A stretch of 64,000 nucleotides of DNA, from the IMG/VR virus record IMGVR_UViG_3300045988_134109, positions 1 to 64,000 of that record; one strand, written 5' to 3'. A program made the position numbers and the translations under genes. Each line of letters begins with the position of its first letter. The stretch's first letter is position 1. Below the pieces are notes generated by a model. That model saw nothing but the letters and a program-made list of their open reading frames with translations, did no database searches and was not told where the DNA came from. Of this stretch, positions 105 to 60,400 are shown piece after piece. The stretch is from a virus.

Positions 105-107
105 AGA

Positions 108-9471: not shown

Positions 9472-10206
9472 ATGAAAAATCTAATTATTGTTCCGTTTGA
9501 TTTAGAAACGGCAAAAAAAATAAACATAGGGGAAATAGCAGGTCGTATTGTGACAGAGAAAGGACAAAATAGAGCAGAAATCGTATATGAAGACAATTCG
9601 TCAAATTGTCCGTTATTGGTTGTAATTCATTCGATTTCTGTATCGGCAGACTGGTTTTCTGCTACAGGAAAAGCACTTAGCAGCGCAAATCGACTCCTTC
9701 TTGAAGTTCCAGAATATACTACGTTTAAAGATGGAGAGGTGTTAAGTAATAAAGATGGTAGCTATATCTTTATTTTAAATACACATGGGAAATATTTAAC
9801 GTCTTTTTATGCCTCTTTAAATCAAAAAGGTATTCTTAAAATAGAAGATGGTTTATCTGCTTGGGAAAATCAGATAGAAAAATACAGATTTGCCACTGAG
9901 TCCGAAAGACAAAAGTTGGTTGACGCATTAAAGGCAAGCAAAGAACCTAAAGCTAAAGAGTATCTGAAACGCTTCTTCGGGATTGAAGAAAAGCCGAAAT
10001 ATGATTTTAAGCCGTTTGACAAAGTGCTGGTAAGAGACGAGGACGATAAAGAATGGCATATCAGCTTGTTTGCAAGGGAAATTGTGGACGATTCTGATGG
10101 ATTGTCTTATAAGCATGAATGTTCCAATGGAACATTATGGGACTGTTGCATTCCTTTTGAGGGCAATGAATATCTTTTAGGAACTGCTGAAAATCCAGAA
10201 GATTGA
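9472..10206 (+). CDS. hypothetical protein (244 aa from the ATG at 9472); its last codon and stop are supplied by the IS end
   Basis: the track start at 9415 is non-ATG; the ATG at 9472 is preceded by an A-rich leader; the stop TGA at 10204-10206 lies inside the IS right-end sequence TTGACATACTCCCAT. Confidence 0.5.
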   Translation: MKNLIIVPFDLETAKKINIGEIAGRIVTEKGQNRAEIVYEDNSSNCPLLVVIHSISVSADWFSATGKALSSANRLLLEVPEYTTFKDGEVLSNKDGSYIFILNTHGKYLTSFYASLNQKGILKIEDGLSAWENQIEKYRFATESERQKLVDALKASKEPKAKEYLKRFFGIEEKPKYDFKPFDKVLVRDEDDKEWHISLFAREIVDDSDGLSYKHECSNGTLWDCCIPFEGNEYLLGTAENPED

Positions 10207-10514
10207 CATACTCCCATGTTGTTTGAGAATGAAGAAGATTTCTTTTAATTCTTTTGGTAAAATGTTTCTTCATTTTATCAACTGAGATATATTTTCCAAA
10301 CAGTTTGTAATACCTACGTTGTAGAGCTAAAGCATGATTCCACACAAAACAACATTCACGAAGTATCTTGACAAGATACTTCGTTTTCTTCGAATGATAG
10401 ATGTTGTATTTGTATGAAATCATTTTTTTATCTGTAATTTTGATTCAAAATTAATCAAACCAATTCATCCACCTTCTAAAGTATGGTGGTTTTGTTGGTT
10501 AAATAATCATAAAA
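10203..10514 (-). mobile_element. IS200/IS605-family (TnpB-only type) element remnant, copy 1; internally deleted (right-end tip, first ~73 codons of tnpB, left end)
   Basis: 10203-10217 equals the first 15 nt of the repeat at 28861 and 42783; 10219-10514 is ~90-95% identical to 29466-29776. Confidence 0.75.
10204..10423 (-). pseudogene. tnpB: tnpB N-terminal fragment (MISYKYNIYHSKKTKYLVKILRECCFVWNHALALQRRYYKLFGKYIS...)
   Basis: the N-terminus is identical to the 191-aa TnpB fragment at 29110-29685; classic OrfB/TnpB N-terminal pattern (YKYRIY...CRFVYN); the reading frame diverges after ~50 aa. Confidence 0.7.
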
Positions 10515-28631: not shown

Positions 28632-28877
28632 ATGAAAACAAATGAATTAAGGGAAATACTTAAATTGTATGGTCTTCAACATGATGTTGTTATCAACAAA
28701 AGTTCAAGAAGGTATTCTATTATCTTAGATAATAACATAATAGGAACCAATCACGACAAAGAGAGGGTGGTTGTGTTCCGTCCTATACCGGAAGGGAAAA
28801 ACACATTCTGCATGGAGCGAGATAGGTTCTACACGGAGTTTGAAGAAGCTTTTGATGATGTTGACATACTCCCATAG
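28632..28877 (+). CDS. 5' part of a gene disrupted by the IS insertion (76 native codons, then 5 codons plus stop from the IS end)
   Basis: SD GGAAGGAG then ATG; the reading frame runs into TTGACATACTCCCATAG of the IS right end. Confidence 0.6.
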   Translation: MKTNELREILKLYGLQHDVVINKSSRRYSIILDNNIIGTNHDKERVVVFRPIPEGKNTFCMERDRFYTEFEEAFDDVDILP

Positions 28878-29776
28878 CTAAAGCAAATGGGATTCTTGGA
28901 TACAAACGTATGGAACCCCGGTATTTCTACCGCTGGAATTACCCATACTCTCCAATTCGGAAATGCCCTTCCGAAGTATATTACGGGCTGCAAGAACATC
29001 ACGGTCGTTGACCGCGCCGCACGACGGGCATACCCACGTGCGGTCGCGTAACGACAGACCTTTATTAATGCAGCCACATTCACAAGTTTTGGAAGAAGGA
29101 TACCATTTATCATTTGTTCCCATCACTTTTAGTTAGATAAGTTTTCAGGCCAAAATCCAATCCGATAGATGCACCATCATGTGTCTTTCTATAAGAGTTT
29201 GAAGGATTATGATCTGTAACTATAATCAAACTAAAGCGGGAACAGGTTTCTTTAACTATTCTTATTTGTTTAACATTACCTTCGTAGACTCTACTGTATG
29301 AAAATCTAAATCGTTTCTTCCCTTTGTTAATTGTTAAACAATTACCATTCAGGGTAAAACCACCTTGTTTGAAAACAAAAGAATTGAATTTCTCCGGTGA
29401 TTTAAACTTAGGAGGTCGTTTAGCCAACTTCTTAAAGAAACGATTATAAGATTCATCAAGACGTTCAAGTATTTCTTGTGTTGTTTGGGAATGAAGCAAG
29501 TTTCTTTTAATTCTTTTGGCAAAATACTTCTTCATTTTGCCAACTGAGATATATTTTCCAAACAGTTTGTAATACCTACGTTGTAGAGCTAACGCATGAT
29601 TCCACACAAAACAACATTCACGAAGTATCTTGACAAGATACTTCGTTTTCTTCGAATGATAGATGTTGTATTTGTATGAAATCATTTTTTTATCTGTAAT
29701 TTTGATTCAAAATTAATCAAACCAATTCATCCACCTTCTAAAGTATGGTGGTTTTGTTGGTTAAATAATCATAAAA
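28861..29776 (-). mobile_element. IS200/IS605-family TnpB-only element, copy 2 (916 bp, decayed)
   Basis: the right end (28861-28993) is ~90% identical to 42783-42915; 29466-29776 matches 10219-10514; the flanking ORFs fuse in frame when 28861-29776 is removed. Confidence 0.8.
28878..29685 (-). pseudogene. tnpB: tnpB pseudogene: N-terminal 191 aa (through RuvC-I IGLDFGL) plus a frameshifted C-terminal 82 aa (zinc finger CxxC..CxxC plus RuvC-III DRDVLAARNI); ~100 aa including RuvC-II are missing
   Basis: two ORFs at 29110-29685 and 28878-29126 overlap in different frames; the N-terminus MISYKYNIYHS..CCFVWNHAL is typical of OrfB/TnpB. Confidence 0.75.
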
Positions 29777-31487: not shown

Positions 31488-32678
31488 ATGAGATTAGTTG
31501 AAAGGCATATAGTTAAAGACAACCGGTTTGAGGATATTTGCTTCAAATCCGGCTTGTTATATAATTATGTTCTTTACAACATTCGTCAAGGAATCTTTTC
31601 AGGTAACTATTTAAAGGAATTTGATTTATCAGACAAACTTTGCAAAGAAAACCAATTCGATTTCAGGAATTTACCTAATCATGTATCCCAACAGGTGATT
31701 AAACAGGTATTTAAAAACATAAAATCCTGGATAAAACTCAAGAAGGATTTTGAAAAGAATCCTTCTAAATACGGAAATCATAGACCTCACCTTCCATCAT
31801 ACAAACAAGGTAAGAAACAAAACATGGTTGTTTTCACCAACTGCAATTGTAGGGTAAAGGGTGATAATTGTATTTATTTTGTTAAAGATATAATCAAACC
31901 TATCAAAACAAATGTAAAGAAAGACGAACTAAAACAAGTTAGAATAATCCCTCAAGCTACATGTTATGTAGTAGAGGTAGTTTATGAAAGAAAGGAAACT
32001 GATCTTGGTTTAAACAAAGACAATTTTCTTTCGATTGATTTAGGATTGAATAATTTATGTTCATGTATTAGTAATGTAGAAACTAATTCTTTCATTATAA
32101 ACGGACGGGTTATGAAATCAGTAAATCAGTGGTACAATAAGAAGAAAGCTAAGTTGATGTCTTTTGTTGGTAATAAGGGAACTTCAAATAGAATAAGAAA
32201 AATTACTTTGTTTAGAAATTGTTGGATAGAAGACAAATTGCATAAAATCAGTAGATACATTGTAGACTTTTGTAAATCTAACAATATAGGAACAATCATC
32301 ATTGGATTAAACAAAGAATGGAAAAACGAGATAAATATCGGTAAAAGGAATAACCAACATTTTGTTTCTATTCCTCATTCTAAATTGATCGATAAGATTG
32401 TTTACAAAGCAAATCTTTTAGGGATAGAGGTAATTACTCATGAGGAATCTTACACATCAAAGATTGACCATCTTGCTTTTGAACCTCTAAAGAAACAAGA
32501 ATCCTATTTAGGGAAAAGAAAGAAACGTGGATTATTCCAAAGTTCCGTTGGAAAGCTAATTAATGCTGATATTAATGGAGCTATAGGAATAGCAAGAAAA
32601 GTAGTCGGTGATTCTTTCATTGGAAAGATAATCGATAGTGGATTTGTGTTTAATCCGGTTAGAATAAATATTTTGTGA
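31488..32678 (+). CDS. tnpB: full-length TnpB (IS200/IS605 OrfB-type RNA-guided nuclease homolog, 396 aa); RuvC-I/II/III residues present, zinc-finger cysteines absent
   Basis: LSIDLGLNN (RuvC-I D), ITHEESYTSKIDH (RuvC-II E), INADINGAIGIARK (RuvC-III D, NADxNAAxNIA pattern); the segment between RuvC-II and RuvC-III (SKIDHLAFEP...RGLFQSSVGKL) has no CxxC pairs. Confidence 0.75.
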   Translation: MRLVERHIVKDNRFEDICFKSGLLYNYVLYNIRQGIFSGNYLKEFDLSDKLCKENQFDFRNLPNHVSQQVIKQVFKNIKSWIKLKKDFEKNPSKYGNHRPHLPSYKQGKKQNMVVFTNCNCRVKGDNCIYFVKDIIKPIKTNVKKDELKQVRIIPQATCYVVEVVYERKETDLGLNKDNFLSIDLGLNNLCSCISNVETNSFIINGRVMKSVNQWYNKKKAKLMSFVGNKGTSNRIRKITLFRNCWIEDKLHKISRYIVDFCKSNNIGTIIIGLNKEWKNEINIGKRNNQHFVSIPHSKLIDKIVYKANLLGIEVITHEESYTSKIDHLAFEPLKKQESYLGKRKKRGLFQSSVGKLINADINGAIGIARKVVGDSFIGKIIDSGFVFNPVRINIL

Positions 32679-32694
32679 TATAAGGTTGAATCTA

Positions 32695-33432
32695 ATGAAT
32701 AAAATGAATAATTTTAATAACATTAACTACGCAGCAAAAGCCAGAAAAGCTTATTTGATAAATAATTTCGATAAGATTCTTAACAGCCTCAACACGCTTC
32801 ATTCAACGGTTGAAACCATGACGTTGTTCGTAAATGACCAGGCTTATAATTACATTCTTAAGCTGAAGGAAGTGATTAAGGGCGGCCCTATGTACAGGCA
32901 TAATGTCAAACGATTTTTGAATGAGATGGATAAGGAGATAAAGAAGTATAATGCTTCTATCTACTACATAAATAAAGAGCGTAGTGAGGTTATAGCTGAT
33001 ATAACACAAGCGATGGAAGATTACCTCATGCCATACATAGACGACCTGGCCGGCGCTATAAGGGCAGCCGTGTGGTCGAGGGGTGTATCCGAGGAGCGGA
33101 CGGAGGTGGCGGTACTGTCCCTAATCGTATCCTCCTTGGCCACGACATCAGGCAGACTTATCTCAGGTGGATATCAGATCATGAAAGAAATGGGTGGGGG
33201 TCAAGGTGGTAATCCATTTACGTTTATGAGCATTGATAAGATAAGACACTTATCTACATCATTATCTGATGCTATTACCGGTGGAGAAATAGCTCTTGAA
33301 GAAAAAGAAGCCAATGACATAACTAAGGCAATGGATGTTTTTATTGAGAAAATGTCAGATTCGTATATTGTTGATAAGGTGATCAGCATACTTGAAGAGG
33401 CAGAATCTAAAAACAAGGAGGAAGTATCATGA
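32695..33432 (+). CDS. hypothetical protein (246 aa from the ATG at 32695)
   Basis: the track start at 32686 is TTG, 8 nt after the tnpB stop; the first ATG is at 32695. Confidence 0.5.
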   Translation: MNKMNNFNNINYAAKARKAYLINNFDKILNSLNTLHSTVETMTLFVNDQAYNYILKLKEVIKGGPMYRHNVKRFLNEMDKEIKKYNASIYYINKERSEVIADITQAMEDYLMPYIDDLAGAIRAAVWSRGVSEERTEVAVLSLIVSSLATTSGRLISGGYQIMKEMGGGQGGNPFTFMSIDKIRHLSTSLSDAITGGEIALEEKEANDITKAMDVFIEKMSDSYIVDKVISILEEAESKNKEEVS

Positions 33433-33911
33433 ATTTAAAACTCGTATGTCCTAAGTGTGGTGCCAAGCACAATCCCAACTCTACACATTCAATGAATGCC
33501 TCGGATTTCATAGAAGGGGACATTAGGACCATTATGGAAGAACGTGGGTGGTGCTTTCAGTGCGCCTGCTGGCAGAATATATACAACGTACACAAAGACA
33601 ATCCAGGATGGGTTAGAATCGATGGCGTAAGCTGGATTATCAAACCTATGGCAGCGATCGTACCAGGTGGATGGAATGCTCTTGGATGCGGAGGGAGAAA
33701 GATGTATATTAACATCGAAGGAAAGGGTATTGTTGTATCTAATAATACTTGGTGTCAGGGCTATGTTCCAAAAGTCTTTAAGGAACTGATGCCTGATAAT
33801 GCTACGTGGGCTACGAAAGAGGAATACGATAAAGCTCCTACAGTAGGATACGTTATAGAAGGTGTTGGTTTGATTTTCACAGATAGGACAGGTCATGAAG
33901 TTAATGTTTAG
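33429..33911 (+). CDS. hypothetical Cys-rich protein (160 aa)
   Basis: strong SD ACAAGGAGGAAG then ATG overlapping the upstream stop; CPKCG...CFQCAC. Confidence 0.6.
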   Translation: MNLKLVCPKCGAKHNPNSTHSMNASDFIEGDIRTIMEERGWCFQCACWQNIYNVHKDNPGWVRIDGVSWIIKPMAAIVPGGWNALGCGGRKMYINIEGKGIVVSNNTWCQGYVPKVFKELMPDNATWATKEEYDKAPTVGYVIEGVGLIFTDRTGHEVNV

Positions 33912-34159
33912 GAATCTATTCCATACTCCTCTTAGAATAGTTGAAAGGAAATTAACTAATGGGGAAGTGGAATATTGATGCCAATATCAAAACATTTTTG
34001 GGAAATGGAAAAACAGGATAAAATACGATATGTTTGGCATGTGGTGTTATGCTGTTTTTTATTCATTCGAAGATGCGTATGAATTTAATTATGGTAAGAA
34101 CAAAGAAGAAAAGGTAAAGGTAGTGGATTCTTGTTACAAGAAAAGATGGTAACTACAAT

Positions 34160-34196
34160 AATCCCCGGCCATACAATAGGTGTACGGTTGGGGATT
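34160..34196. terminator. imperfect hairpin (AATCCCC...GGGGATT) in the convergent strand-switch region; candidate bidirectional terminator
   Basis: 7-bp GC-rich stem flanked by A-rich (upstream) and T-rich (downstream) sequence between the last plus-strand gene and the first minus-strand gene. Confidence 0.35.
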
Positions 34197-34232
34197 ATTG
34201 TAATATATGATTAATAACCGTCTTATCTTTTA

Positions 34233-34682
34233 TTATAATTCTACATAGGTGTCAATAGGAACAAAGCTGCCAATTGTACTTATCTTATATATTGAATGAA
34301 TAAGGTGAGTACTTGGACTTAATTTCAGTTGAGGTACTTGATTGGATCCTTCTGTAATAAAGAAATAATAAAAAACGTCTCCAATCGTAAACTGTAACAT
34401 AATATCACCTGTTACCGATCCTTCATTAAAGTAAGCCTGGATATATTGTCCAGAATTTGATATCGTACAATTTATAGGATTACCGCCCATCGTACATACC
34501 TTGCTATTATTAATTTCATCTAAAACATAGGAAGCCGCCATAGTTGCTCCATTAGATCGGTATCTACAACCAAGAATAGGTACAGGATTTCGCCATGTGG
34601 TTGTAGGGGCCGAAATCGAACAAGCAAAAACAGGGATCTTGCCGCCAGCAACTGTATTAATATTTTCAAATCTTCTTCTCAT
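34233..34682 (-). CDS. MRRRF-family small protein 1 (149 aa)
   Basis: ATG start; N-terminal MRRRFENINTVAGG shared with two paralogs. Confidence 0.6.
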   Translation of the reverse strand: MRRRFENINTVAGGKIPVFACSISAPTTTWRNPVPILGCRYRSNGATMAASYVLDEINNSKVCTMGGNPINCTISNSGQYIQAYFNEGSVTGDIMLQFTIGDVFYYFFITEGSNQVPQLKLSPSTHLIHSIYKISTIGSFVPIDTYVEL

Positions 34683-34686
34683 AATT

Positions 34687-34914
34687 TTATAAAATTAATT
34701 CAGTAAAAGGACGGACATAATGTGAACTACCCCTTGAACCTGTATCCAAATGATCTCCTTGGATGTTTATATCATAATACCACGAATAGGAAAATTTTTC
34801 ATTTCGAGTGGATGTCCACATTCTATTACTCATTATCGTACCTCCTACCATTAAAAGGCATTCGTTTATTTCATTAGCATACAATGATATCAAAAAAAAA
34901 CTCTCCGGCGCCAC
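34687..34914 (-). CDS. ORF that would be fused to MRRRF-2 by a 1-nt slip in the T9 tract (+1 frame; track start is GTG)
   Basis: no ATG start; begins inside the 3' end of MRRRF-2, immediately at the T9 run (top-strand A9 at 34892-34900). Confidence 0.3.
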   Translation of the reverse strand: MAPESFFLISLYANEINECLLMVGGTIMSNRMWTSTRNEKFSYSWYYDINIQGDHLDTGSRGSSHYVRPFTELIL

Positions 34915-35305
34915 CTACATATCCATTTTGACCATTTTTAAATAAATAGCTATTAGCTTTATTAAAAGCGTAATCTGTATTACTGGTATCATATTCAAGA
35001 TACGCATTCTGATTTTCACGCCCCCAATAATCCTTTTTAATAGTTCCCATATGAGAACTATCTTGTGCAAATATATTGTCTATTTCTCCATCCTTACCCC
35101 AACGAAATGTGCCAATATATTCGGTGGCTATAACAAAACACACTTTATCTACAAGAGCTATTCCATTGCATAGATCATTGGAATATCCTTTATTAGACCA
35201 ATTTTCTTTTGTATATAATCCTCCATCTACATGTTGGATGTATATGCCTTTATTGATTATAAGCGAGGGATTTACCCCCATCCCTATTTGAAATCTTCGT
35301 CTCAT
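34874..35305 (-). CDS. MRRRF-family small protein 2 (143 aa from the ATG at 35305)
   Basis: the track start at 35392 is TTG; the ATG at 35305 gives MRRRFQIGMGVNPS; the C-terminal ...KNGQNGYVGGAGEFFF aligns with paralog 3 (...NNSGNAIKLNGEFG). Confidence 0.55.
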   Translation of the reverse strand: MRRRFQIGMGVNPSLIINKGIYIQHVDGGLYTKENWSNKGYSNDLCNGIALVDKVCFVIATEYIGTFRWGKDGEIDNIFAQDSSHMGTIKKDYWGRENQNAYLEYDTSNTDYAFNKANSYLFKNGQNGYVGGAGEFFFDIIVC

Positions 35306-35348
35306 GATTTTTGTTTGCAAGATAGCAATAATTGACAACATAAAAGAA

Positions 35349-35383
35349 ACCGGTTCTCTATCATCTCTGACTGAGAACCGGTA
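35349..35383 (-). terminator. 10-bp perfect hairpin (ACCGGTTCTC/GAGAACCGGT) followed by a U-rich stretch on the minus strand; terminator after the 2148-aa gene
   Basis: the minus-strand RNA reads hairpin then UUCUUUUAUG; located between the 2148-aa gene and MRRRF-2. Confidence 0.5.
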
Positions 35384-35517
35384 AGAAAACAATTTTAGAA
35401 AAAATTAAACCTACATAATCTTTCAAGTAAGAACAAAAACGTATAGTCTACTCTTTGACGATGCTAATATAACATATTGGAATCATACAAAAACAATGCA
35501 AGTCCGGTATTCTTCGT

Positions 35518-38500
35518 CTATTTGTAACTAACATCATCGTCTCCTTCCGAATCAGGAGTAGCGCCGATGAAGAACATCATTGACTTGTTGTTCGTCTGCT
35601 GCCACCAATTATAGGCGCGCGCTACGTCTTCCGGCGTCTTGATATTATACCATTGTTTGATAAACGTCTGTTTGGCGAGTTGCCTAAATAACTTAGACTC
35701 TCCTTTGTATGTGCCGGATGTTACTTTATCAAGTGAGTAATTCCTAAGATCAGTAAGATCCTTCAACTTCCGCCCCATGACAAACGGGTCGTTAATGATA
35801 TCTACCACGTTAAGCTCCATAATAAACGGCATCTGTGAAGCTATTTCGTTTATGGTTCTGAATCCGACATAGGATCCAAATTGAGTAAGCCAACTTTCTT
35901 CGTTTTCATCATCATCACGCCATCCGGCAAGAAGCATAGATACGGCTTGCATGATAAGAAACGTGCCGGCATAGACACTGAGGCGTTTGAGATTAGTTTT
36001 TTCTACCTCATTCATATTGTCTTTATTTTCGTTCCAGGCATCTATGATGTTTTTCATACCAGACTCGGAAGCCAGGCTAAATGTTTTGGCTATCATATTC
36101 TTTAACGTAATTGACAACCCTTCCTCTTCTTGCATTGTCTGGAAATTGAAGCCACGTCTTTTCCACAGACGTTGAGCTGCCAGCACCAGCCAGCCTCGGT
36201 GGGCGGTCATGAACCTGGCTATCCAGTTGCGCGATGCGGCAGTTCGGTTTTCTTCATTCAAAGATCCGTTACATATCTGCGACAAGCTACGGACTTGATT
36301 CCTGGTTATAGCCATCTGGGTTTCAACTTCCTCAACAGTAACACCCGATCCCGGCTTTACAACCACCTTTCCATCCACGACGTCTACCATACTCCATAAA
36401 GTACGATCTTTTAATGCGTTCCATTCTCTTTTTATGGTACTCTGTTCTTTATTGCGTTCTTTTTCCATCTTGAAATCTTGGAACGTGTAGAACCGGCCTT
36501 TGTAATAACGAACATTGTCCATAGTAGCAATCATAACCTGCGGATCAAGAGGGTAGTTCAGGATTTCCATAAAAGCATACATCGGTGAACGCATTAAGGT
36601 CCTGGCCACTCTATTGTATCCGGCACCATACATACGATTTCGGATATTGAATATCCCCATTCTCTCACCTATGACATATAATTTGCTTTTCCTATCTATG
36701 TCTCCGGTTTCTGCTATACAAGATGGCGCAAGGCGTGAAAACTCAGCCGATGCGTATCTAAGGGAATCTTTACTTATATACTGTCCTACGGCAGATTCCA
36801 TGATGAGGTTGATGTGGCCGGTAAGGGCGCCGGTAGCTGCCACAAACGGGGACAGCGCCAGGTTCATGACCGACATAAATCTTTCAACGGCCATCATTAT
36901 CCTGGTAAGGTCTACTGTGTACCCACCGATGTTTACCGTCAGTTTTTTGGTGTTCATTCTAATGCCATAATAATGGTCATTGAAGAAGTCTCTAAACATC
37001 TGATATGCTTGAGTTGCTTCAGCTTTCTTCCCGCCTTCAAATTGCTTATTCAGCAACATCTGCTCCAGCCCTTGTGCAAGCTCTATAGATTTCTGCTTTT
37101 CGTTGTATAATGATGACTGCATCATAAGCATCGAATAAGAGTAGCCAAAATCGTGAGATACGTCATCTTGGTTCTCTAATTCATATATGTAGTATTTAGG
37201 TATGGACCGAACCCTATCTTCCGGATCATATACCTCACCCTGGCGTGTTTTACCATACAGGGAGTCATCTACGCGGTCAAGACATAAATCGGATACGAAG
37301 TTCCTGACCGTACTTTTAAGGCTGATACCCAATCCTTCTACACGTTCTATATCTTGTTTGGATATCTGTGGAATAGCATACAGATTAGGGCTCTGCTCTT
37401 TATATAGATCAAGGGATTGTCTTTTTATTTCCTTGAGTTTTTGAATCATATTCCACTGCTCTACGTTTTTAGTAGCGACCTCATTACCATCAGCATCATA
37501 CTTAATGCCGAAGTCGTTGAAATACGATTCATCACGATACAGGCTCTTCTTGGGCATACGATGACCATACCCATGATCTTTTACATAATCAGGGTTACGA
37601 CCGCTATTTTCGGCCTCAGATTCAGCCACCCACGCTCTTGCAGGGTCGAAAGAAAGGTACGATATGTCCATACCATAATCTTGTGTGGAAGTCCCATTCT
37701 GTACGTCCTTAACCATCTGCGCTACATCTATCTCACCTCGACCGATTTTGTCGATCATAGCCGCATATCCGGTAGGCGCCATGCGTTTATAGTACGAAAA
37801 GACCTGGCTCCTGGCAAATTCATTAACAATAGCATTAGCTTCTTCTATGCCCGCTTTTATGTCAGCTTCTATACCCTCTTCCCTTGTATTATTTAAAAAT
37901 AAGCTGGCCATCTTAGCATTAACAGCATTCCTAAAATCTCTACCGTCTAATTCTTTGCTTATACCAAGCTTTTCTGACAGGTAGTTGGTTTCAGATACGG
38001 TAAACAGATATCGGTTATCAGCAGCCTTAAACAGCTTATCCCTTAAAGCCTGAATCCTTTTTGCTTTCTTCGCCGTAGTATGACGTTGTACGAACTTCCA
38101 TTCCACTTCCTTAGAGTCAGCAAGAGCATTTAAATAAGACTGATTGACTTCGTTTTCAGCCTTACTGCTTTTAGTAAGGTATTTATCAATATCTTCAAGA
38201 CCCACCATCTTAGCATAATCTATCAAAATAGCGTAATCGGTTTCAATAGCTTCGGATGCGGCCCTAAAAGCATCTCTTTCAGATGAGGTAAATGTCGCTT
38301 CATTGATTTCTCCGATGTCAGCCACGTCACGGTTGTTGCCGATTATTTCCTTGATAATGGCCTTATTTTTTTCTATATCTTTTACAATGGAATCCACGTC
38401 AGTCGCATCTCTATCACTTGTCGTAGAACTAATGATGTCTTGTGCCATTTTGAGATACGAAGCCTTGTTATTTGATTCGGTACGTGCCGACTGTTCCGAT

Positions 38501-41500
38501 TCTATGTCATTCCAAAACCGATCGTTAAATGACAGGTGCCCTCCCAACATAAGTGTCTTCAGCGCAGCTTCTCCTCCTGACTCGATTTGAATCGTTCTCA
38601 ATTTTTGTAAAAACGATTCTGATACGGCATTAGTGACATTATTTGATTCTTTTCTCCAAACTTCATTTATGGCTTGTATTTCTTTAGCCATCTTAAGCTG
38701 GTCTCCGGTTTTTTCAACACGTCTGGTACCAACATATATGTATTCCGAAGCTGCTTCCTTACGTTGTTTACGAAGCAGTCCTTCTTCTTCGTAGTTACTA
38801 CTCTTATAGTAGGCAACCTCATCAAAATTACCACCGCTATCAATAAAAGGCTGCCTCAATATCCGTTTTTGCCGGGAAAGAGCATTAAGGTATTCTTTAG
38901 TTGTTTGAGAAACCGGATGCCCTAATTCTTCTTCGGCCTTTTTGTATATGGATTCCATTCTTGTGGCATAACTTTCACTAAATTCCAATTCTGAATTTTC
39001 AGCATCCCACTTTTCCATCTGCTCCGTATAGATCTTTTCCTGCTCGATGGTAAAAATATCGGTATTAACCCTATCGGACGATGGTTTAAATTTAGCGTTT
39101 TCAGTAACCGTATTTCCGTCCTTGTCAACTACTTCTCTTTTAAATACGTAATTACGATTATTATCAACCACATCATTGATTTCTTCTTCTGATATTTCTA
39201 TGTTCATGGCAGTCGCGAACGCACGCATCTGTGCCAGTTTCTTATTACGATCGTATTTAGCCATATCAAGAGCACTACGAAGGTAATTAGAAGTTTTGCC
39301 GTCTACTTTCTGAAGCAGTTTTTCAAATTCAGATTTGTTAAAACCATGCTTTTTAGCATATGCCAGGAAGTCGGATATGGCGGGCTGGGCATTCACCATC
39401 GCATTGTAATTGTCTTTGGCAATCATAGCTCCAAGAGCGTTATTGAACGGACTGGAAGAATGCTCTAATATACCGAACCACCTACTTATCCAAGAAACAT
39501 CGTGTTGAACCTTGTCAAAAAATTCTTTTACTCTCTTTACCTTATCTGCCGGCACATGAAGTTCGTTCATTAACTTATCAAGCAACGTACTTTCATCAAG
39601 GTCTTGTACTGATTTAATATCAGACTGAATACCATTGATGTCGGCAATGACGGTATTGATCCTATTTGTATAATCCTGCTTTTCACGTTCATCAAATTCG
39701 GTACTTCTGTTACGGATATATCCTCGAAGATCGTTCATGATCGGAAGAACCTGATTGTTGATAATATCTACGTTCTTTCGATCATTGGTATTGAAGTGAA
39801 GCTTACCATCTTTGGTATCACCATGAAGGATGGTGTTCACCACATTGCTTAAGTATCTGACCTGAGCTTCGGCTGTAGAGATCATGCTATTCATGGCAGC
39901 CGCCATCTCATTCTTGTCTATTTCGGTCTCTACCTTATTTATCTTATCTTCTATAGTCTTAAGCTGAGCAAGGGTCATAGACGTAGTTACAGCCCTATCA
40001 GAGCTTATCTGACGCAAGTCTCTTAAGGTTTTTCTCAATGCCCGGATCTTAGACTCAAGAAACTTGTTCTTGTTCATAGAAGAAAGGGAGTATAATGTAA
40101 AGTCATTATCCTTTAACAGAGAGGTATCAAATCCTTTATCTATGTCAGTAATGGCAAGATCACGAATGCTTTTAATAACGTTATTCAAATCTTGTCTTTG
40201 GGTTGATAAAGCTGATTTAAGCCAGCTTACGATTCCAGAGAGAAGCTGCCGGACGCGCCCCAGGAAGGAGGTGGGCTCTACCGGCGCCTGTGCTGTTCCG
40301 GTCTGCATCTCCCTGGCGAGGATCTTTCCAAGAATTTCTCTCCTAACAGCATTATCAAGCTCAGCTCCTTCATATACCTTACCGTATGTATTATAATACT
40401 GACCTGCATACTGGTTCCACTCTTCCGTACCTTCTACATCTTGCAGAACAGCCTCAACAGCATTCTGATCTCTGTATGCCTCTACAAGGAAGTGGGCTGT
40501 TTCTTCTACTAAATCAGATAAAGTAGCATCTTCACCAACTGCTATTACGTTATTGGCAATATCCGCCAATGCCTTAGCAGAAGGTTCATGCCCGTATTTG
40601 GTTTGGTACTTCTCTATATAGTCGGTCATACCTATGACACTAACGCCAAGAGTTTTCAGTATCTCGACAATAGAATTTCGTTGATCACGTTCCTGCCTGC
40701 TATAATCTGATACGATCTTAGCTTTAGTATCAGCATAAAGATCGTTGTCTTCTAATATGAATGAAACTACAAGCGCATCAAAATGATCGTACTTGGCGTC
40801 CAATTCATTGTATCTTCCTGACTTAAGATCGTTCTTTATCTGCTCTTTGCTAACCCTTTCCGTTCCTCCGGTAGCGAGCCTCATAGTTACCTTGCTATTA
40901 TCCAACGAGCTTATGGTTATCATACCTTGGTCGTTCATGGAAACATCGGAACCAAAATGATTACGGAGCTCGGTGTAGGATAATGCTGAATTGAAAAGTC
41001 TAATTTGTCCTGTATGTCCTTCTCCTGTAAGATAATAGCTTCTTGTTTCCGAATCGAATATCTTAGATCCTGACAAAAGACCTTTCTTTATAAGGTAGTT
41101 AATTATCCCGCCTTTTGTTGATAAAGAAGTAGAAGCAGACGCGGTCATGACCGGTATAAAAGACTTGGGATTATTAAGAACATACTTTCCAGCCTTGTAT
41201 GTAATGTCTGCCACGCCATCCACGGTAGATTCTTGAACGGTGCCGGATAAGAATCCTATTCTAATATCATTCCCACCAGAACGAAGAGCTTCTCCGTAAT
41301 CTTCAAATAATTGACTACGATCGTTCATAAAAAACAAACGAGGCTCTCCGGTCTGATACGTTACACCCACAGGATTAGGATCTGCCTCCGGTAGCTCTTC
41401 TGGGCTAAATATCTTAAGACCGTCTTTTATAACCATATAATTAGCATCCTTATCCTGTACCATAGATACGGGAGTGAAGTCCGAAGATATAGCATCTTGT

Positions 41501-41964
41501 AGATACTGACCGGCGTCTATTCCAGGTCCTTCCAGCACGGAAATGCTTGACGGAACCATAGCATCCACCAACATAATATTATCACCCAGATCTTGGCTGT
41601 AGAATCCAAAGCCCGATTCTTGAATCCCATAAGGTGCATCTGATTTTGACACAAGAACAGGGTTACTCATCTTAGACGCCTTATCCAGCACCCTTTCTCT
41701 ATAGGATTCCGGAATAAGGCCGATGTTGGATTTTACCTTATTATAAGCCTGTTTATTAACAGGTACATTCCTTCTCCAGTCACCAAAAGCCTTTAAGAAC
41801 TTATTAGAAAATACGGTTTTAAAAACAGTAGTAGCCCGTTCCCTATTCTCCATAAGAGGAATAGATGCTATTTTATCAAACAACATAGACCTGTCCCCTG
41901 ATCTGGTAGAGACAGAAACAACTTTCTTTTTATTATCTCTTTTAATAATACACGTTGATGTCAT
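35518..41964 (-). CDS. giant virion-associated protein (2148 aa), function unknown
   Basis: uninterrupted 6.4-kb ORF with ATG start and TAG stop; largely alpha-helical/coiled-coil composition; no recognisable catalytic motifs. Confidence 0.8.
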   Translation of the reverse strand: MTSTCIIKRDNKKKVVSVSTRSGDRSMLFDKIASIPLMENRERATTVFKTVFSNKFLKAFGDWRRNVPVNKQAYNKVKSNIGLIPESYRERVLDKASKMSNPVLVSKSDAPYGIQESGFGFYSQDLGDNIMLVDAMVPSSISVLEGPGIDAGQYLQDAISSDFTPVSMVQDKDANYMVIKDGLKIFSPEELPEADPNPVGVTYQTGEPRLFFMNDRSQLFEDYGEALRSGGNDIRIGFLSGTVQESTVDGVADITYKAGKYVLNNPKSFIPVMTASASTSLSTKGGIINYLIKKGLLSGSKIFDSETRSYYLTGEGHTGQIRLFNSALSYTELRNHFGSDVSMNDQGMITISSLDNSKVTMRLATGGTERVSKEQIKNDLKSGRYNELDAKYDHFDALVVSFILEDNDLYADTKAKIVSDYSRQERDQRNSIVEILKTLGVSVIGMTDYIEKYQTKYGHEPSAKALADIANNVIAVGEDATLSDLVEETAHFLVEAYRDQNAVEAVLQDVEGTEEWNQYAGQYYNTYGKVYEGAELDNAVRREILGKILAREMQTGTAQAPVEPTSFLGRVRQLLSGIVSWLKSALSTQRQDLNNVIKSIRDLAITDIDKGFDTSLLKDNDFTLYSLSSMNKNKFLESKIRALRKTLRDLRQISSDRAVTTSMTLAQLKTIEDKINKVETEIDKNEMAAAMNSMISTAEAQVRYLSNVVNTILHGDTKDGKLHFNTNDRKNVDIINNQVLPIMNDLRGYIRNRSTEFDEREKQDYTNRINTVIADINGIQSDIKSVQDLDESTLLDKLMNELHVPADKVKRVKEFFDKVQHDVSWISRWFGILEHSSSPFNNALGAMIAKDNYNAMVNAQPAISDFLAYAKKHGFNKSEFEKLLQKVDGKTSNYLRSALDMAKYDRNKKLAQMRAFATAMNIEISEEEINDVVDNNRNYVFKREVVDKDGNTVTENAKFKPSSDRVNTDIFTIEQEKIYTEQMEKWDAENSELEFSESYATRMESIYKKAEEELGHPVSQTTKEYLNALSRQKRILRQPFIDSGGNFDEVAYYKSSNYEEEGLLRKQRKEAASEYIYVGTRRVEKTGDQLKMAKEIQAINEVWRKESNNVTNAVSESFLQKLRTIQIESGGEAALKTLMLGGHLSFNDRFWNDIESEQSARTESNNKASYLKMAQDIISSTTSDRDATDVDSIVKDIEKNKAIIKEIIGNNRDVADIGEINEATFTSSERDAFRAASEAIETDYAILIDYAKMVGLEDIDKYLTKSSKAENEVNQSYLNALADSKEVEWKFVQRHTTAKKAKRIQALRDKLFKAADNRYLFTVSETNYLSEKLGISKELDGRDFRNAVNAKMASLFLNNTREEGIEADIKAGIEEANAIVNEFARSQVFSYYKRMAPTGYAAMIDKIGRGEIDVAQMVKDVQNGTSTQDYGMDISYLSFDPARAWVAESEAENSGRNPDYVKDHGYGHRMPKKSLYRDESYFNDFGIKYDADGNEVATKNVEQWNMIQKLKEIKRQSLDLYKEQSPNLYAIPQISKQDIERVEGLGISLKSTVRNFVSDLCLDRVDDSLYGKTRQGEVYDPEDRVRSIPKYYIYELENQDDVSHDFGYSYSMLMMQSSLYNEKQKSIELAQGLEQMLLNKQFEGGKKAEATQAYQMFRDFFNDHYYGIRMNTKKLTVNIGGYTVDLTRIMMAVERFMSVMNLALSPFVAATGALTGHINLIMESAVGQYISKDSLRYASAEFSRLAPSCIAETGDIDRKSKLYVIGERMGIFNIRNRMYGAGYNRVARTLMRSPMYAFMEILNYPLDPQVMIATMDNVRYYKGRFYTFQDFKMEKERNKEQSTIKREWNALKDRTLWSMVDVVDGKVVVKPGSGVTVEEVETQMAITRNQVRSLSQICNGSLNEENRTAASRNWIARFMTAHRGWLVLAAQRLWKRRGFNFQTMQEEEGLSITLKNMIAKTFSLASESGMKNIIDAWNENKDNMNEVEKTNLKRLSVYAGTFLIMQAVSMLLAGWRDDDENEESWLTQFGSYVGFRTINEIASQMPFIMELNVVDIINDPFVMGRKLKDLTDLRNYSLDKVTSGTYKGESKLFRQLAKQTFIKQWYNIKTPEDVARAYNWWQQTNNKSMMFFIGATPDSEGDDDVSYK

Positions 41965-42105
41965 AGTAAAACATTTTTGTTATAAGACAAAGGTAGTTAA
42001 AAATCAAGCATATCATAAAAAATTAAGCCATCTAACTTCTCAGTCTGATGGCTTAAAAATAATATGAAAAAAAATTATAATCTGACGTAAATCGTCAAGT
42101 TACGC

Positions 42106-42429
42106 TTATGCATTATATTTGTACCCATTTCTATGAATAAACCTTCCAGATTCGAACCTTTCCACATCATCCGGTCCAATAGGTCCGCAGTCTTCCCTCC
42201 TTGCCTCATACCACAGCCCCGGCTTACGGAGCCGGCAGGTTATGACGTATTTAAAGCAGTTGTGAGTAAAATGGAATACGGATCCTACTGGGAAATACCT
42301 GGTAGTTTGAAACACTATTCTTTTTCGTTTAGTATCAAACGTGATATCTCCTACTACCTTAGTCACGTAATAGCTTATGCCATTTAACGTTTCATCTGTC
42401 TGCGGTATCCAATAATAACCTCGTGCCAT
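42106..42429 (-). CDS. hypothetical protein (107 aa)
   Basis: ATG ORF in the island between the giant genes. Confidence 0.45.
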   Translation of the reverse strand: MARGYYWIPQTDETLNGISYYVTKVVGDITFDTKRKRIVFQTTRYFPVGSVFHFTHNCFKYVITCRLRKPGLWYEARREDCGPIGPDDVERFESGRFIHRNGYKYNA

Positions 42430-42458
42430 GCCACAAATATATGAAAAAGTCGGATAAC

Positions 42459-42780
42459 TTACGTACCCGACTTTATTATTTGTTTAAATAGTCCAATTTC
42501 ATCTATTTTTACATGACCGCTTTGCATACGACCATTATTAGGATTGTGTAGAAAATTGAAACCACTTTCTTTTTCCTGTCTTTCAAAAGAACTGATATCC
42601 TTTCCTCTACGAGCTCTTCCAAAAGCTTTCTTGAACAACTTTCCTCTGAAGGTCTTGATGAGGATCTTGGTAGCGTTATTGCCAGCTCTTACCATCGCTT
42701 TCCTTGCCTGGTCCTCCGAGACAAAACTACTTTGGAAAATATACGATGCTGCTGCTTGTATGTCCTGCTTGGTAATCATA
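42459..42780 (-). CDS. basic hypothetical protein (107 aa from the ATG at 42780)
   Basis: the track start at 42833 is TTG inside the IS-derived repeat; the ATG at 42780 is the first nucleotide outside the repeat. Confidence 0.45.
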
Positions 42781-42782
42781 TG

Positions 42783-42915
42783 TTGACATACTCCCATAGC
42801 TAAAGCAAATGGGATTCTTGGATACAAGCGCAAGAAACCCCGATATTACTATCGCTGGAATTACTCTTGCTCTCCAATTTGGAAATGCCCTTCCGAAGTA
42901 TATTACGGGCTGCAA
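42783..42915 (-). repeat. solo 133-bp copy of the IS right end (tnpB 3' end plus RE = omega-RNA scaffold region), no TnpB attached
   Basis: ~90% identical to 28861-28993, starting with the same TTGACATACTCCCATAGCTAAAGCAAATGGGATTCTTGGATACAA. Confidence 0.8.
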
Positions 42916-43042
42916 ATACTTTTTAAAACAAACCAGGGCCCGCATCACTGCGAACCCTGATCTACGCTAATCTAAACTAATACCATGAAAAACTTAAATC
43001 TAAAAACTAAAGAACACACAAATGTATGAAAATGTATGGTTT

Positions 43043-43240
43043 TCACAAAGAATCTGTATCCTGTTCTTTTGTGTGATTCAAGACATGGGATATAGTTCTG
43101 ATACTTAATCCGGTTTGATTTTGTATCAGATTATAAATATAGGATTTTGAAACTACAGTTCTTAATTGACCTAAATCATTCATAATGTTTTTATACATAA
43201 GATGAATGCTGTTATTACGTTTGATGGTACTGATTCTCAT
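43043..43240 (-). CDS. small putative helix-turn-helix DNA-binding protein (65 aa)
   Basis: TGLSIRTISHVLN resembles an HTH recognition helix; followed by a 220-bp AT-rich region. Confidence 0.4.
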   Translation of the reverse strand: MRISTIKRNNSIHLMYKNIMNDLGQLRTVVSKSYIYNLIQNQTGLSIRTISHVLNHTKEQDTDSL

Positions 43241-43464
43241 TTCCTACTGTTATTAGTTACGTTCGGTTCTTACTTTTTCCTTATTCCCATAATCCCTTCC
43301 TGAAACTAATATTGCAAACTTAACAAAAATAATCCATAAACAATGAAAATCTAACTTTTCTTATATGTCATTGATATACGTGCATATATAAGAAAAGTGA
43401 GACTTTCACAAGCTTCACTTCCCAAATTATAACTATGAAAAAACTATATATATGTATATAAAAA

Positions 43465-45723
43465 TTACCTGCATTCCAATTTGTTAAGATCATCCAATTC
43501 AGACTTGCTTACGGTCATGTCTTGCGTCAAGCCAGATCTGTTTTGGTATGGAGCGTAATCGGTTTCTACCGTCTTAGCCTTCTGAGTAGAATCGTATTTC
43601 ACCTCTGATTCGGTTCCTGTCAGATTTTGGTAGATAGAGCCGGAACTACTCTCGCTTACTTTAGACCATATCTTATTACCTACTCTTATAAAATTATCAT
43701 AAATACCTTCGGCTGTTATAACACCATCTTGCTCTACGATATTAGGGCCCGATTTTTCTTTTAACAAATACGGGTGCCTGGTGTAAAAATAGTGTTCAAA
43801 ATCATTCCCGGCATACGAAGGGTCATACTTCTCCAAATAAAACAATTCTGATAAAGAAGGGTCGGTACTGGTCATGCTATAATCAAACAACATCAACCTG
43901 TCTTTTCCAGATAAAGATAATTCTATTGATTTCAAAATATCAGGATCATCAGAAATAAGGCCCAAAGATGGACCAGGTTTGAAGTCAAGATACTTATAGG
44001 CATTATCATATAATTTTGTTTTATGGAGTTTGTTGTCAAGGTAAGATTGGTATAAATCGAATAAGGATAATGGGTTTTCGCTATCTTGTTTTTTGTTCAT
44101 GTATCGACTATACTCCCGATCCACATCCACGTAAGGAACGTCAAGTACCTCCGGGTGCCCAAACGCCATCCTGGTCATTATCATGTCCTCTGTGTTCTGA
44201 GAATCCATGAACGATCTGACGTATTTTTTAATGGAATCCATGAGCGTATTATTATCTACGTTCCGTACTTTCTCTTTATCCAAAACGCCGTTCTTAAAAC
44301 AAGATTCAGGATATATTTTAGTAGAAAAATGAGTTAGGTTGTGCTTGGCTAACACTGTTGATATTTGATACATCTCGTTAAGATCATCTTTGCTGATCCT
44401 TTGATATAGATTATCTCCTACCTTAAGCAATGAATGTTTCTCAAACGCTTCTACTGGGTCTATATCGGATTCAGAATAAACGATATTCAAATTATCCATA
44501 TACTCCGGTAATAATCCAAAATAATAATCTGTGCTATCACCAAGAACATCATCTATAGAAGATGCCAGCGTTGGAGCATAATTTACATCATTATGCCTGG
44601 CCACATAAATATCAAGATCCAGCATCAAATTATCTATCTTATTCAAAGATTCTTCTGTGCCATCATAAGTTTCCGATGTCCCTATTATATCTATGCCAAA
44701 CCACGTACAAGCCTCTTCTATATCCCATATCATGCTTCTTAAATCAGATTCGGTGTCGGCATTAGCCCTATGTAAATAAGCTGATATACGAGCTCTTAGG
44801 AACTCTATTTTGCCAGGATTGTAATAAGACAGATCTTGTAGCTTAGATAAGGATCTTCTCTTGCCTTCCACCACATCATCCCCTTCTATGTTTATTACCG
44901 GAATCTTATTCGTAGATGAGAACTCATCAAACATAGATTCGGCAAATTCTTTATCAGAAACGAATTTCTCAACCAGTTCAGGATATGAATTTCTCAACAA
45001 TTCAAAAGCAGATGAAAATTCAGAAAAGTTTTTTATGCCGGCTACTGTTTTACGCATAGCATAATAAAGCTCAGAAGGATTATATGGTACTTTTTTACCA
45101 AATTGGTTAAACACTCCCTCCTTGTAAACAATAGGACCATACTGATAGTCAACAGACATAAAATAATTATCCTTTTCCCTATCATGTTCGTTAATAGAAC
45201 AATCTATTAACTTTCTCATGGAAGTCGAAACCTCATTTAAAACAGAAGGATCGGATAAAATACGACTTATCTCTGTTTCATCATACAAACCGGATCTCCT
45301 TAATTTCTGCTCATTCAGTATCAAACTGCCATCTACATAAAAATCGAAGAGAATAGCATTAGACAATGAAGACGCATTGAAAAAATAATGAGTAGACAAA
45401 AGGAAATCCCTTACATCCTTAATGTCCTGAGCCGTTAAAGGATCAGCAAAATAAGTCTGACGCTTCATATACGACAGCACGTCTTCTAAAAGAGGTTCAC
45501 CATTGGGATCGGTATTAAACATCTCCCCTGGAGCCGGGTTATTCCAATGACCATAATACGACAAAAAACCAGGAGTGTAAGCCTTAGCCCATACCTGAAG
45601 AGCCCGCTCGCTGTTTCCTAATACTTTCAAAGCACTTTCGTAAAGAACGGAAGGCTCCCCGTTAGGAGCCTTAACCCGTTTTATTTCATTTTCCTTTTTT
45701 TCTATCTGACATTTGACACCCAT
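43465..45723 (-). CDS. large virion-associated hypothetical protein (752 aa)
   Basis: ATG start, TAA stop; in the structural gene block. Confidence 0.75.
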   Translation of the reverse strand: MGVKCQIEKKENEIKRVKAPNGEPSVLYESALKVLGNSERALQVWAKAYTPGFLSYYGHWNNPAPGEMFNTDPNGEPLLEDVLSYMKRQTYFADPLTAQDIKDVRDFLLSTHYFFNASSLSNAILFDFYVDGSLILNEQKLRRSGLYDETEISRILSDPSVLNEVSTSMRKLIDCSINEHDREKDNYFMSVDYQYGPIVYKEGVFNQFGKKVPYNPSELYYAMRKTVAGIKNFSEFSSAFELLRNSYPELVEKFVSDKEFAESMFDEFSSTNKIPVINIEGDDVVEGKRRSLSKLQDLSYYNPGKIEFLRARISAYLHRANADTESDLRSMIWDIEEACTWFGIDIIGTSETYDGTEESLNKIDNLMLDLDIYVARHNDVNYAPTLASSIDDVLGDSTDYYFGLLPEYMDNLNIVYSESDIDPVEAFEKHSLLKVGDNLYQRISKDDLNEMYQISTVLAKHNLTHFSTKIYPESCFKNGVLDKEKVRNVDNNTLMDSIKKYVRSFMDSQNTEDMIMTRMAFGHPEVLDVPYVDVDREYSRYMNKKQDSENPLSLFDLYQSYLDNKLHKTKLYDNAYKYLDFKPGPSLGLISDDPDILKSIELSLSGKDRLMLFDYSMTSTDPSLSELFYLEKYDPSYAGNDFEHYFYTRHPYLLKEKSGPNIVEQDGVITAEGIYDNFIRVGNKIWSKVSESSSGSIYQNLTGTESEVKYDSTQKAKTVETDYAPYQNRSGLTQDMTVSKSELDDLNKLECR

Positions 45724-45749
45724 TGTAATTAACTTTTTTGCAAAGTTAA

Positions 45750-46280
45750 TTATAAAACCGACTTATACAATGACGGATCCCAAATTCCTTCTATATAAAT
45801 CTCCGGAAAACTCAAACTGCCATCACGAAGAGTGGTGACTTCCAAGCTGGGAATGTTGAAAACAGTACTGGTATCACCAAACTCACCATTCAACTTGATA
45901 GCATTTCCGCTGTTATTAGCCTCATAATAAAAATAACAATAATTTTCATTAATGCTTGGATCATATTCGTACCAATATGTTAGATCTTGTATATGATCTT
46001 CTATGTTACCAATTTTGTTTTCACCTAATATAAAAATACCATTATTGCTATGATTATAAACCATAGATTCATAACCACCATAATTCCAATTACTATTAAA
46101 CATTATGTAACTAACATCAGAATCATGATCTTTTAATACAGGTCCTATATGTATATGAATTTTATTAAACTGACATACATAAGGTCTTTTTCCTCCAAGC
46201 CTTTTTATATCTTCATTGGATAACTTATTATAACATCCTCCCACGAAATTATCCGCAGCATTAAAAAATCTCCTTCTCAT
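45750..46280 (-). CDS. MRRRF-family small protein 3 (176 aa from the ATG at 46280)
   Basis: SD AAGGAG then ATG 2 nt after the TGA of the 2136-aa gene; N-terminal MRRRFFNAADNFVGG. Confidence 0.6.
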   Translation of the reverse strand: MRRRFFNAADNFVGGCYNKLSNEDIKRLGGKRPYVCQFNKIHIHIGPVLKDHDSDVSYIMFNSNWNYGGYESMVYNHSNNGIFILGENKIGNIEDHIQDLTYWYEYDPSINENYCYFYYEANNSGNAIKLNGEFGDTSTVFNIPSLEVTTLRDGSLSFPEIYIEGIWDPSLYKSVL

Positions 46281-59749: not shown

Positions 59750-60400
59750 TTTTATGACGGTTTGGATAAGAGACAGGAAAACGACTCTGAACGTAACCGA
59801 CTGACCGTCAGTGGTGGGACAACAAATCTTGAATTAAAACTACGCCTATGAATAGTCTCCGTTTTCCTTAATATTAAGACCATTTTCAATGATCTTACTC
59901 ATTATATTATTTATATTATTTTATATACTTTACCATTTATTCATATAATTGTTTGCAGTGAATGAACTTAACGACTGAAGGGAGTTAAGTGAGTGAACGG
60001 ATTGACAAATTACTTTTTCCGTCTATTGTATTGTTTGCCTAATTGTGTTAAAAGATTGAGTATCGTGACCGAAGGGAACGATGCGAAAGAACATATAATA
60101 TTTAAAAACGACTGAACCTATCGACTGAAGGGAGATAGGTGATGGAGTGACGTTAATAATTATATTAGATAGCCAGTGGAGAATTAGGCAGGCTGGTAGG
60201 CGAGACGAGCGTCCATGCCCGTCAGGACAGTGGAAGTACGTAGGTCTGTTCTGTTAAACCAAGACGATGATAGTTCCATCCTTCACGAAATTGCACAAAA
60301 AAGCCGGATTATCTTGATATCGTTCTTCAACCTTTGGTATCCGCATAACGAGTCTCAAATCCGGCTTCGCTTTATTAATATGAGAAATAAAATAATTGTT
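59750..60400. other. 650-bp non-coding, locally GC-rich region with three stem-loops sharing the loop GAC(T/C)GAAGGGA; candidate structured RNA or protein-binding array
   Basis: hairpins at 59967-59989 (CTTAAC/GTTAAG), 60062-60082 (ATCGT/ACGAT) and 60117-60139 (CCTATC/GATAGG) have different stems but the same 11-nt loop; additional partial CGACTGA copies at 59782, 59798 and 60109. Confidence 0.5.

Follow-up and report, generated by a model that had tools for sequence, protein, structure and literature searches.

Solo right end of a TnpB-only IS605-type element in an Epsilon crAss-like phage: a complete omega-RNA scaffold in what is probably a recent deletion scar

The fragment and its genomic setting

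The DNA analysed here (the window, 64,000 nt) comes from an Epsilon crAss-like phage whose sequence shares about 90-97% identity with that of csAssE-Sib (OR575929.1). At 42783-42915, on the minus strand, it carries a solo right end (RE) of a 1243-nt TnpB-only IS605-type element, and the features of the locus are, from high to low coordinates:

43019-43049, minus strand: nearest canonical Bacteroidetes-type promoter motif (TTTG-N19-TACATTTG), putative, from a motif scan
42925-42959, minus strand: intrinsic-terminator-like hairpin (CAGGGTTCGCAGTGATGCGGGCCCTG) followed by GTTTGTTTT, read from the sequence
42914-42916, no strand: deletion junction between phage DNA (equivalent to csAssE-Sib 95445) and the 3' part of tnpB, with 1-nt (T) microhomology, from synteny and the junction sequences
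42901-42915, minus strand: additional 15 nt of tnpB coding sequence (AARNI motif codons) 5' of the scaffold, from the alignment with copy B and intact copies
42783-42900, minus strand: complete omega-RNA scaffold and RE, matched end to end by covariance model R1 (138.3 bits), its structure predicted independently by RNAalifold
42880, minus strand: private G-to-A substitution (TTTCCGAA to TTTCCAAA) in the 3' arm of SL1, from the alignment of 40 REs and the comparison with intact copy L101
42763-42782, minus strand: flank at the guide position, CATATGATTACCAAGCAGGA, including the ATG of the downstream gene; RE boundary from ~30 insertion sites
42459-42779, minus strand: open reading frame of a 106-aa basic protein (pI 10.5), whose upstream partner gene is present in relatives and missing here

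A repeat search of the whole window paired 42780-42915 with 28858-28993 at 92% identity, and the 15-nt RE tip GTTGACATACTCCCA was located at three sites (28860, 42782 and, with one mismatch, 10202; 0.08 expected by chance). The sequence-only reading had proposed a solo RE copy with the 3' end of tnpB, and this was borne out: the fragment comprises 113 nt from the 3' end of tnpB, followed by the stop codon (42800-42802) and then a tail of 17 nt. In tnpB sense it starts in the AARNI codons (TTGCAGCCCGTAATATA...) and ends ...GGGAGTATGTCAA at 42783, where the element terminates (...GTATGTCAA|), and its identity to the corresponding end of intact 379-aa TnpB genes (PF01385 and PF07282) is 92-99%. 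A subterminal-hairpin test on both ends found RE hairpin P6 retained and the left end wholly missing, and the fragment is for this reason a remnant and not an element. The distance between the element end and the downstream ATG, first given as 1 nt, is 3 nt (CAT, 42782-42780; ATG at 42779-42777), and the downstream gene, first given as 107 aa at 42459-42780, is corrected to the 106 aa listed above; its product found no match in a Pfam search.

Synteny with csAssE-Sib is broken at this point. Window 33432-42782 corresponds to Sib 111608-102089 and window 42915-45757 to Sib 95445-92616, so that the fragment fills exactly the break, and 6.6 kb of Sib (95446-102088), with an antirepressor gene, a spike-like gene and several small genes, are absent. 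In csAssE-Sib and 80 IMG/VR relatives a 116-aa gene precedes the 106-aa gene, its TGA overlapping the ATG, and this upstream gene is missing from the window. The left junction (GTATT|TGCAG, one shared T) lies within tnpB coding sequence, which is joined there to phage DNA. The terminator-like hairpin follows the small gene upstream and immediately borders the fragment on its 5' side; hairpin and T-run are kept in csAssE-Sib and in three further contigs (L066, L089, L195), and a simple terminator scan did not call it.

The arrangement was found in 0 of the 80 related contigs, an exact-junction scan of IMG/VR returned no match to either junction sequence, and none of the fetched loci had the RE joined to CATATGA. 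Among 241 million metagenome records the RE-side junction matched only two (L167, L168), both chance 19-mers in sequences otherwise dissimilar to the window. A search through the exact 106-aa protein gave two contigs (L289, L290), rejected because both carry the un-inserted site. The arrangement is a singleton, seen in no other sequence.

Elsewhere in the window, an 817-aa helicase gene (25825-28278, plus strand) contains ~1 kb (~25932-26980) absent from its csAssE-Sib orthologue, and this insert, which starts ...APCGCHAKG and ends ...IHHNSGKS, looks like an intein with a homing-endonuclease-sized core. Repeat regions at window 1-105, 109-252 and 59942-60142 comprise tandem 21-nt repeats (TCCCATCAACAAAATTCAACC, ~5 copies), three ~47-nt repeats and a 51-nt direct-repeat pair 150 nt apart.

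The element family, its insertion site and its omega-RNA scaffold

The intact element measures 1243 nt and encodes a 379-aa TnpB with OrfB_IS605 and TNB domains, without tnpA. A tblastn search confirmed 304 loci in IMG/VR (including L086-L165 and L169-L285), nearly all in the Epsilon crAss-like clade, and the element occupies at least 30 sites in these phages. The 185,579 bacterial and archaeal species genomes searched held only one distant relative (54% aa identity, in a Cryptobacteroides MAG), and bacterial genomes were on this ground rejected as its source. No tnpA is annotated in csAssE-Sib, and mobilisation would presumably need TnpA supplied in trans.

The flanks of ~30 distinct insertions place a TTAT TAM immediately 5' of the left end and define the RE terminus GTATGTCAA, ending GTCAA; where an insertion is clean, its two flanks are contiguous in Sib or in the window, with no target duplication. 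Insertion 3' of a short TAM with defined termini, as in IS200/IS605 elements, was therefore found for the family, and the flank of the present copy follows TTTAT in relatives. The un-inserted site reads ...ATGTTTAT|CATATGATTACC in most of them (in longer form, ...GAAATGTTTAT|CATATGATTACCAAG), and in 30 of 80 it reads TTTAT|CATATGATTACCAAGCAGGA, i.e., a TTAT TAM followed by a perfect 20/20 match to the guide. The two contigs with an identical 106-aa protein read TTTAT|AATATG (TTTAT|AATATGATT), with the upstream gene intact. As the TTAT motif sits within the stop/start overlap ATGTTTATCATATGA ahead of the 106-aa gene, the RE adjoins the start codon, and the RE boundary, the TAM and the empty-site data together show the RE to lie exactly at the point to which a canonical TnpA-mediated event would bring it. 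The guide position adjoining the RE had thus been placed correctly by the sequence-only reading, and the search that it proposed for a target beside a TAM found one, the un-inserted allele; the rest of the window gave no guide match other than one chance match with three mismatches. This correspondence of guide and target results automatically from the IS605 mode of insertion.

The scaffold was modelled on an alignment of 40 distinct right ends, made up of the two window copies, the csAssE-Sib copy, 30 intact IMG/VR copies, four solo or mini copies, two other phage records and the Cryptobacteroides MAG. RNAalifold folded their last 118 nt into five helices (SL1, P2, P3, P4-P5 and P6): SL1 is formed by UUCGGAAG and UUUCCGAA, P2, which encloses P3 and P4-P5, by UUGGA and UCCAA. 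The tnpB stop codon is contained in the UUUAG loop of the terminal hairpin P6, after which comes the tail GUAUGUCAA. Changes on both sides with pairing kept were seen in 26 of 35 pairs; paired cells reached 97.8%, as against 32-54% with partners slid by 1-3 columns, and none of 500 shuffles was as good. In the most distant members (L166, L288) nearly every helix sequence is replaced and pairing is retained. Covariance model R1 matched csAssE-Sib at its one copy and the window only at 28861-28978 and 42783-42900. Since the five-helix covarying fold of the 40 members falls inside it, the fragment holds the complete covarying scaffold (118 nt) and 15 nt more, in line with the earlier claim that it represents the part of the element forming the omega-RNA. 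A 200-nt alignment gave only a weak extra hairpin, within zinc-finger codons, and the native omega-RNA may extend 5' beyond the fragment. No Rfam 15 family matched the window at gathering score, and at E<=10 the sole match over the copy B RE (28700-29400) was a spurious miRNA, which makes this a new sequence family within a known RNA class. The scaffold ends 3' at the transposon boundary, the flank stands as guide and a TAM-flanked empty site as target, so that by position, structure and guide geometry the fragment is assignable to the TnpB omega-RNA class and would act, or once have acted, in the manner of such an RNA.

Fragment and copy B differ at 11 positions, 8 of them compensatory, in paired columns of P3 and P5. 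Compensatory changes and a TAM-flanked target, whose absence the sequence-only reading would have counted against a guide RNA, were therefore both found. The B/fragment differences separate two sublineages of intact elements and are so attributable to selection at the level of the family, not of this copy; structure and target properties alike belong to the element family and not to the fragment itself. What is particular to the fragment is a substitution: compared from TTGCAG onward with the RE of an intact copy (L101), it shows one difference, G to A at 42880, and at SL1 pair 6-21 this A gives the sole unpaired cell in all 40 sequences. With G the predicted minimum-energy fold is the canonical structure (-40.4 kcal/mol); with A (-36.5 kcal/mol) SL1 and P2 are predicted to be lost, a new UCCAAAUUGGA hairpin sequestering the 5' strand of P2. 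The private substitution is thus predicted to damage SL1 and destabilise the scaffold.

Two other copies of the element lie in the window:

28861-29770, minus strand: copy B, both ends intact, tnpB frameshifted and with a ~340-nt internal deletion, scaffold at 28861-28978
10203-10508, minus strand: copy A, a 14-nt RE tip and 292 nt of left end and tnpB 5' part

Copy B stands in place of 154 bp of phage DNA bounded by two TTTAT sites. Its tnpB (28878-29685) now consists of two ORFs in different frames, one of 191 aa and one of 82 aa, the shorter with a Cas12f1-like TNB zinc-ribbon domain, and it lacks ~113 codons, including the RuvC-II glutamate region, of the intact 379-aa homologue (L025). 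Copy A, which proved to be more than an RE tip, has its left end at the same TTTAT as two intact copies (L097/L098), and beside its RE 4.9 kb of csAssE-Sib are absent. The split frames and missing codons agree with the earlier statement that the cognate TnpB copies in the window are inactive. All three copies sit where Sib DNA is missing (4.9 kb, 154 bp and 6.6 kb). A second TnpB gene of an unrelated family (31488-32678, plus strand) is intact, encodes 396 aa and is a clean insertion relative to csAssE-Sib (Sib 112759-112785); it was rejected as a partner, being of a different family and with no R1 match near the gene. The two TnpBs of csAssE-Sib are 18% identical.

Solo and miniature forms of the element occur elsewhere in the clade:

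L172:2972-3089, L173:10189-10307, L175:11866-11983, L204, L232, L252, L263: G1, a solo 117-nt RE at one orthologous intergenic site in seven contigs
L178:8361-8560, L183, L190, L235: G2, a PATE-like mini-element of ~197 nt, cleanly inserted with contiguous flanks at the site Sib 17372/17373

G1 starts exactly at the first scaffold stem, has undergone compensatory change and is preceded, ~14 nt upstream, by a perfect Bacteroidetes -7 box (TATATTTG), with GCATTATACAAATACA as guide; it is a candidate stand-alone omega-RNA gene, and no tRNA or other RNA was found beside it. G2 joins ~75 nt of an alternative left end, also present on many full-length copies, to a 122-nt RE scaffold. L288 (MT835674.1) has on its minus strand, at ~1490-1620, an RE scaffold all of whose helices have undergone heavy compensatory change; since the upstream sequence is unlike tnpB coding sequence, this may be another solo copy. 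RE stubs of 15-133 nt are frequent in the clade. Those of 33-96 nt are found at L030:2834-2866, L195:5498-5543, L241, L246, L251, L275, L280 and L284, and two of the short stubs sit at the site of full-length copies in L025/L026/L057. No remnant without a left end was observed between 133 and 1243 nt, so that truncation lengths are strongly skewed to short RE pieces. A TAM-like motif at the left breakpoints of the stubs, as for truncation made by TnpA, was sought and rejected, only assorted microhomologies being present.

DNA loss next to the RE, ranging from 12 bp to 4.9 kb, was recorded against empty references in 11 copies, including the window copies A and B, and the left-end junction was unchanged in all 11. 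Copies with a common left-end junction have the RE joined 12 bp to 4.9 kb further downstream, and in 8 of the 10 junctions examined in sequence the join falls exactly behind a different TTAT of the reference. The copies compared with csAssE-Sib are:

window 10203-10508: copy A
window 28861-29770: copy B
L086, L087, L092, L097, L107, L111, L129, L140: copies in IMG/VR relatives

These losses suggest intramolecular joining of the RE to a downstream TAM by TnpA or, equally, recombination between direct insertions.

Origin and possible function of the fragment

We consider the fragment probably an inert, recent deletion scar. A 1243-nt TnpB-only element, moved by TnpA in trans, would have come to lie with its RE directly 3' of TTAT; an illegitimate deletion with 1-nt microhomology would then have eliminated the left end together with tnpB as far as the AARNI codons and the phage genes upstream, which amounts to the 6.6-kb loss relative to csAssE-Sib, and the final 133 nt would thereby have been fused to the terminator that follows the preceding small gene. 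What survived would be the whole omega-RNA scaffold and the natural guide position, with no promoter of their own and with one destabilising mutation. We infer this order of events from the junctions and the synteny. Remnants of 15-96 nt in the clade indicate that decay to short RE stubs is common, and among the options offered by the sequence-only reading a deletion remnant is the best supported one, considering the singleton arrangement, the deletion junction behind a terminator, the lack of a canonical promoter and the damage to SL1.

Several observations pull the other way. The entire covarying scaffold was kept, at least two independent protein-less RE modules also keep it (117 nt in G1 and 122 nt in G2, and the L288 copy may be a third), and the gap in remnant length from 133 to 1243 nt gives a hint that modules of scaffold size are preferentially kept or formed. 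A perfect target with TAM is frequent in competing phages, one substitution is insufficient to establish relaxed constraint, and the fragment could be transcribed by read-through of the terminator. In addition, ~90 kb of phage genome beyond the window may hold an intact cognate tnpB, and the csAssE-Sib copy lies in the region corresponding to the part outside the window.

The same observations bear on the alternative that the fragment is an orphan omega-RNA gene acting in trans, which we regard as unlikely. A read-through or cryptic transcript of scaffold and guide would be loaded by the TnpB of another copy, elsewhere in the genome or in a co-infecting relative, and the complex would cut the un-inserted allele (TTTAT followed by CATATGATTACCAAGC), leading to gene conversion or to harm to competitors. 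Besides the complete covarying scaffold, with the guide exactly in register, the TAM and 20/20 match in 30 of 80 relatives and the recurrence of scaffold-keeping modules without protein (G1, G2), this finds a precedent in the PATEs, which often encode omega-RNAs dependent on TnpB in trans (Meers et al., bioRxiv 10.1101/2023.03.14.532601). Against it stand the missing canonical promoter and the terminator directly upstream: no TAnnTTTG motif (the Bacteroidetes -7 box) was found between the terminator and the ATG, and the putative promoter at 43049-43019, lying upstream of the terminator, would reach the fragment only via read-through. SL1 is broken by the private G-to-A change, which is also predicted to sequester a strand of P2, neither of the two cognate tnpB copies in the window is functional, the native omega-RNA may reach further 5' than the fragment does, and, the arrangement being a singleton, there is no evidence of selection. 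The guide RNA in trans put forward by the sequence-only reading is thus possible but unsupported. Nothing specific to this copy indicates function. The promoter motif, followed after ~60 nt by the conserved hairpin terminator (43049-42925, minus strand), could specify a short transcript from the interval that separates the upstream small gene and the fragment.

A cis-regulatory exaptation, in which the RE became the 5' leader or a weak promoter of the 106-aa gene after its translational-coupling partner was deleted, appears unlikely. Gene and RE lie on the same strand, with 3 nt between RE end and ATG, the gene that had its stop codon over this ATG has been lost, and the junction creates a sigma-70-like site (TTAAAA-N18-TATACT) with 9/12 matches. 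However, the scan that gave this site did no better than chance, with four sigma-70-like sites against 4.8 expected from shuffles, and it is ill suited to a Bacteroidales host; TTTG/TAnnTTTG promoters, the kind used by the presumed Bacteroidales-type host, are absent from terminator to ATG. Moreover, the singleton arrangement shows no conservation, and the location of TTAT fully explains the proximity to the ATG.

With regard to origin only, the element might have inserted further upstream, a TAM-delimited deletion beside its RE, through an intramolecular TnpA reaction or recombination between direct copies, having brought the RE to this TTAT, and a second deletion having taken the left part. 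The 11 copies with RE-adjacent losses of 12 bp-4.9 kb, the 8 of 10 junctions after another TTAT and the unchanged left-end junction in a series sharing one insertion site favour such a course; it needs, however, one event more than insertion at TTAT and a single deletion, and no left end survives upstream, and we hold it to be quite improbable. There is a similarly slight chance that the fragment, G1 and G2 are guide-only selfish or competitive modules borrowing TnpB from a co-resident copy or a co-infecting rival, in which case loaded TnpB would cut the rival's un-inserted allele and convert it to the module allele, here with a linked 6.6-kb deletion.

As a scar the locus is ordinary, yet it is a well-dated example of TnpB elements reshaping a gut phage genome. 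The analysis also yields a covariation-supported omega-RNA model and the TTAT TAM for a TnpB family of Epsilon crAss-like phages, and this family may serve as a compact phage-borne RNA-guided nuclease. The orphan-guide reading, if true, would mean that guide RNAs persist and act without a nuclease gene in phage-phage conflict.

Comparison with known systems

Solo IS ends at deletion junctions are commonplace. The fragment resembles them in having one end at a synteny break and the other junction with microhomology, and differs from ordinary cases in that the retained end also encodes a complete guide-RNA scaffold.

That scaffold is comparable to the TnpB omega-RNA (reRNA) of IS200/IS605-family elements such as ISDra2, whose coding sequence lies at the 3' end of tnpB, across the stop codon and the RE (Karvelis et al., 2021; Meers et al.). 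As in those systems, a multi-helix RNA, here with covariation, ends at the transposon boundary, the flank provides the guide and the target is the TAM-adjacent empty site, TTAT being the TAM in this family. Unlike them, the fragment has neither an attached tnpB nor a left end.

PATEs are protein-less IS200/605 derivatives that often encode omega-RNAs needing TnpB in trans (Meers et al., bioRxiv 10.1101/2023.03.14.532601). The fragment is likewise protein-less, keeps RE and omega-RNA and would depend on TnpB in trans; PATEs, however, keep both ends and can be mobilised, whereas the fragment is immobile, and the absence of the left end means that it is not a PATE. The true PATE-like relative within the same family is G2 (L178, L183, L190, L235).

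With TldR and other nuclease-dead TnpB derivatives that have dedicated guide RNAs, the fragment shares a TnpB-derived guide RNA module repurposed outside active transposons (Wiegand et al., bioRxiv 2023.11.30.569447). In contrast to TldR, no TldR-like protein accompanies it, the tnpB at 28878-29685 being a frameshifted pseudogene and not an in-frame nuclease-dead variant, and since no in-frame nuclease-dead protein is present the fragment is not a domestication of the TldR type.
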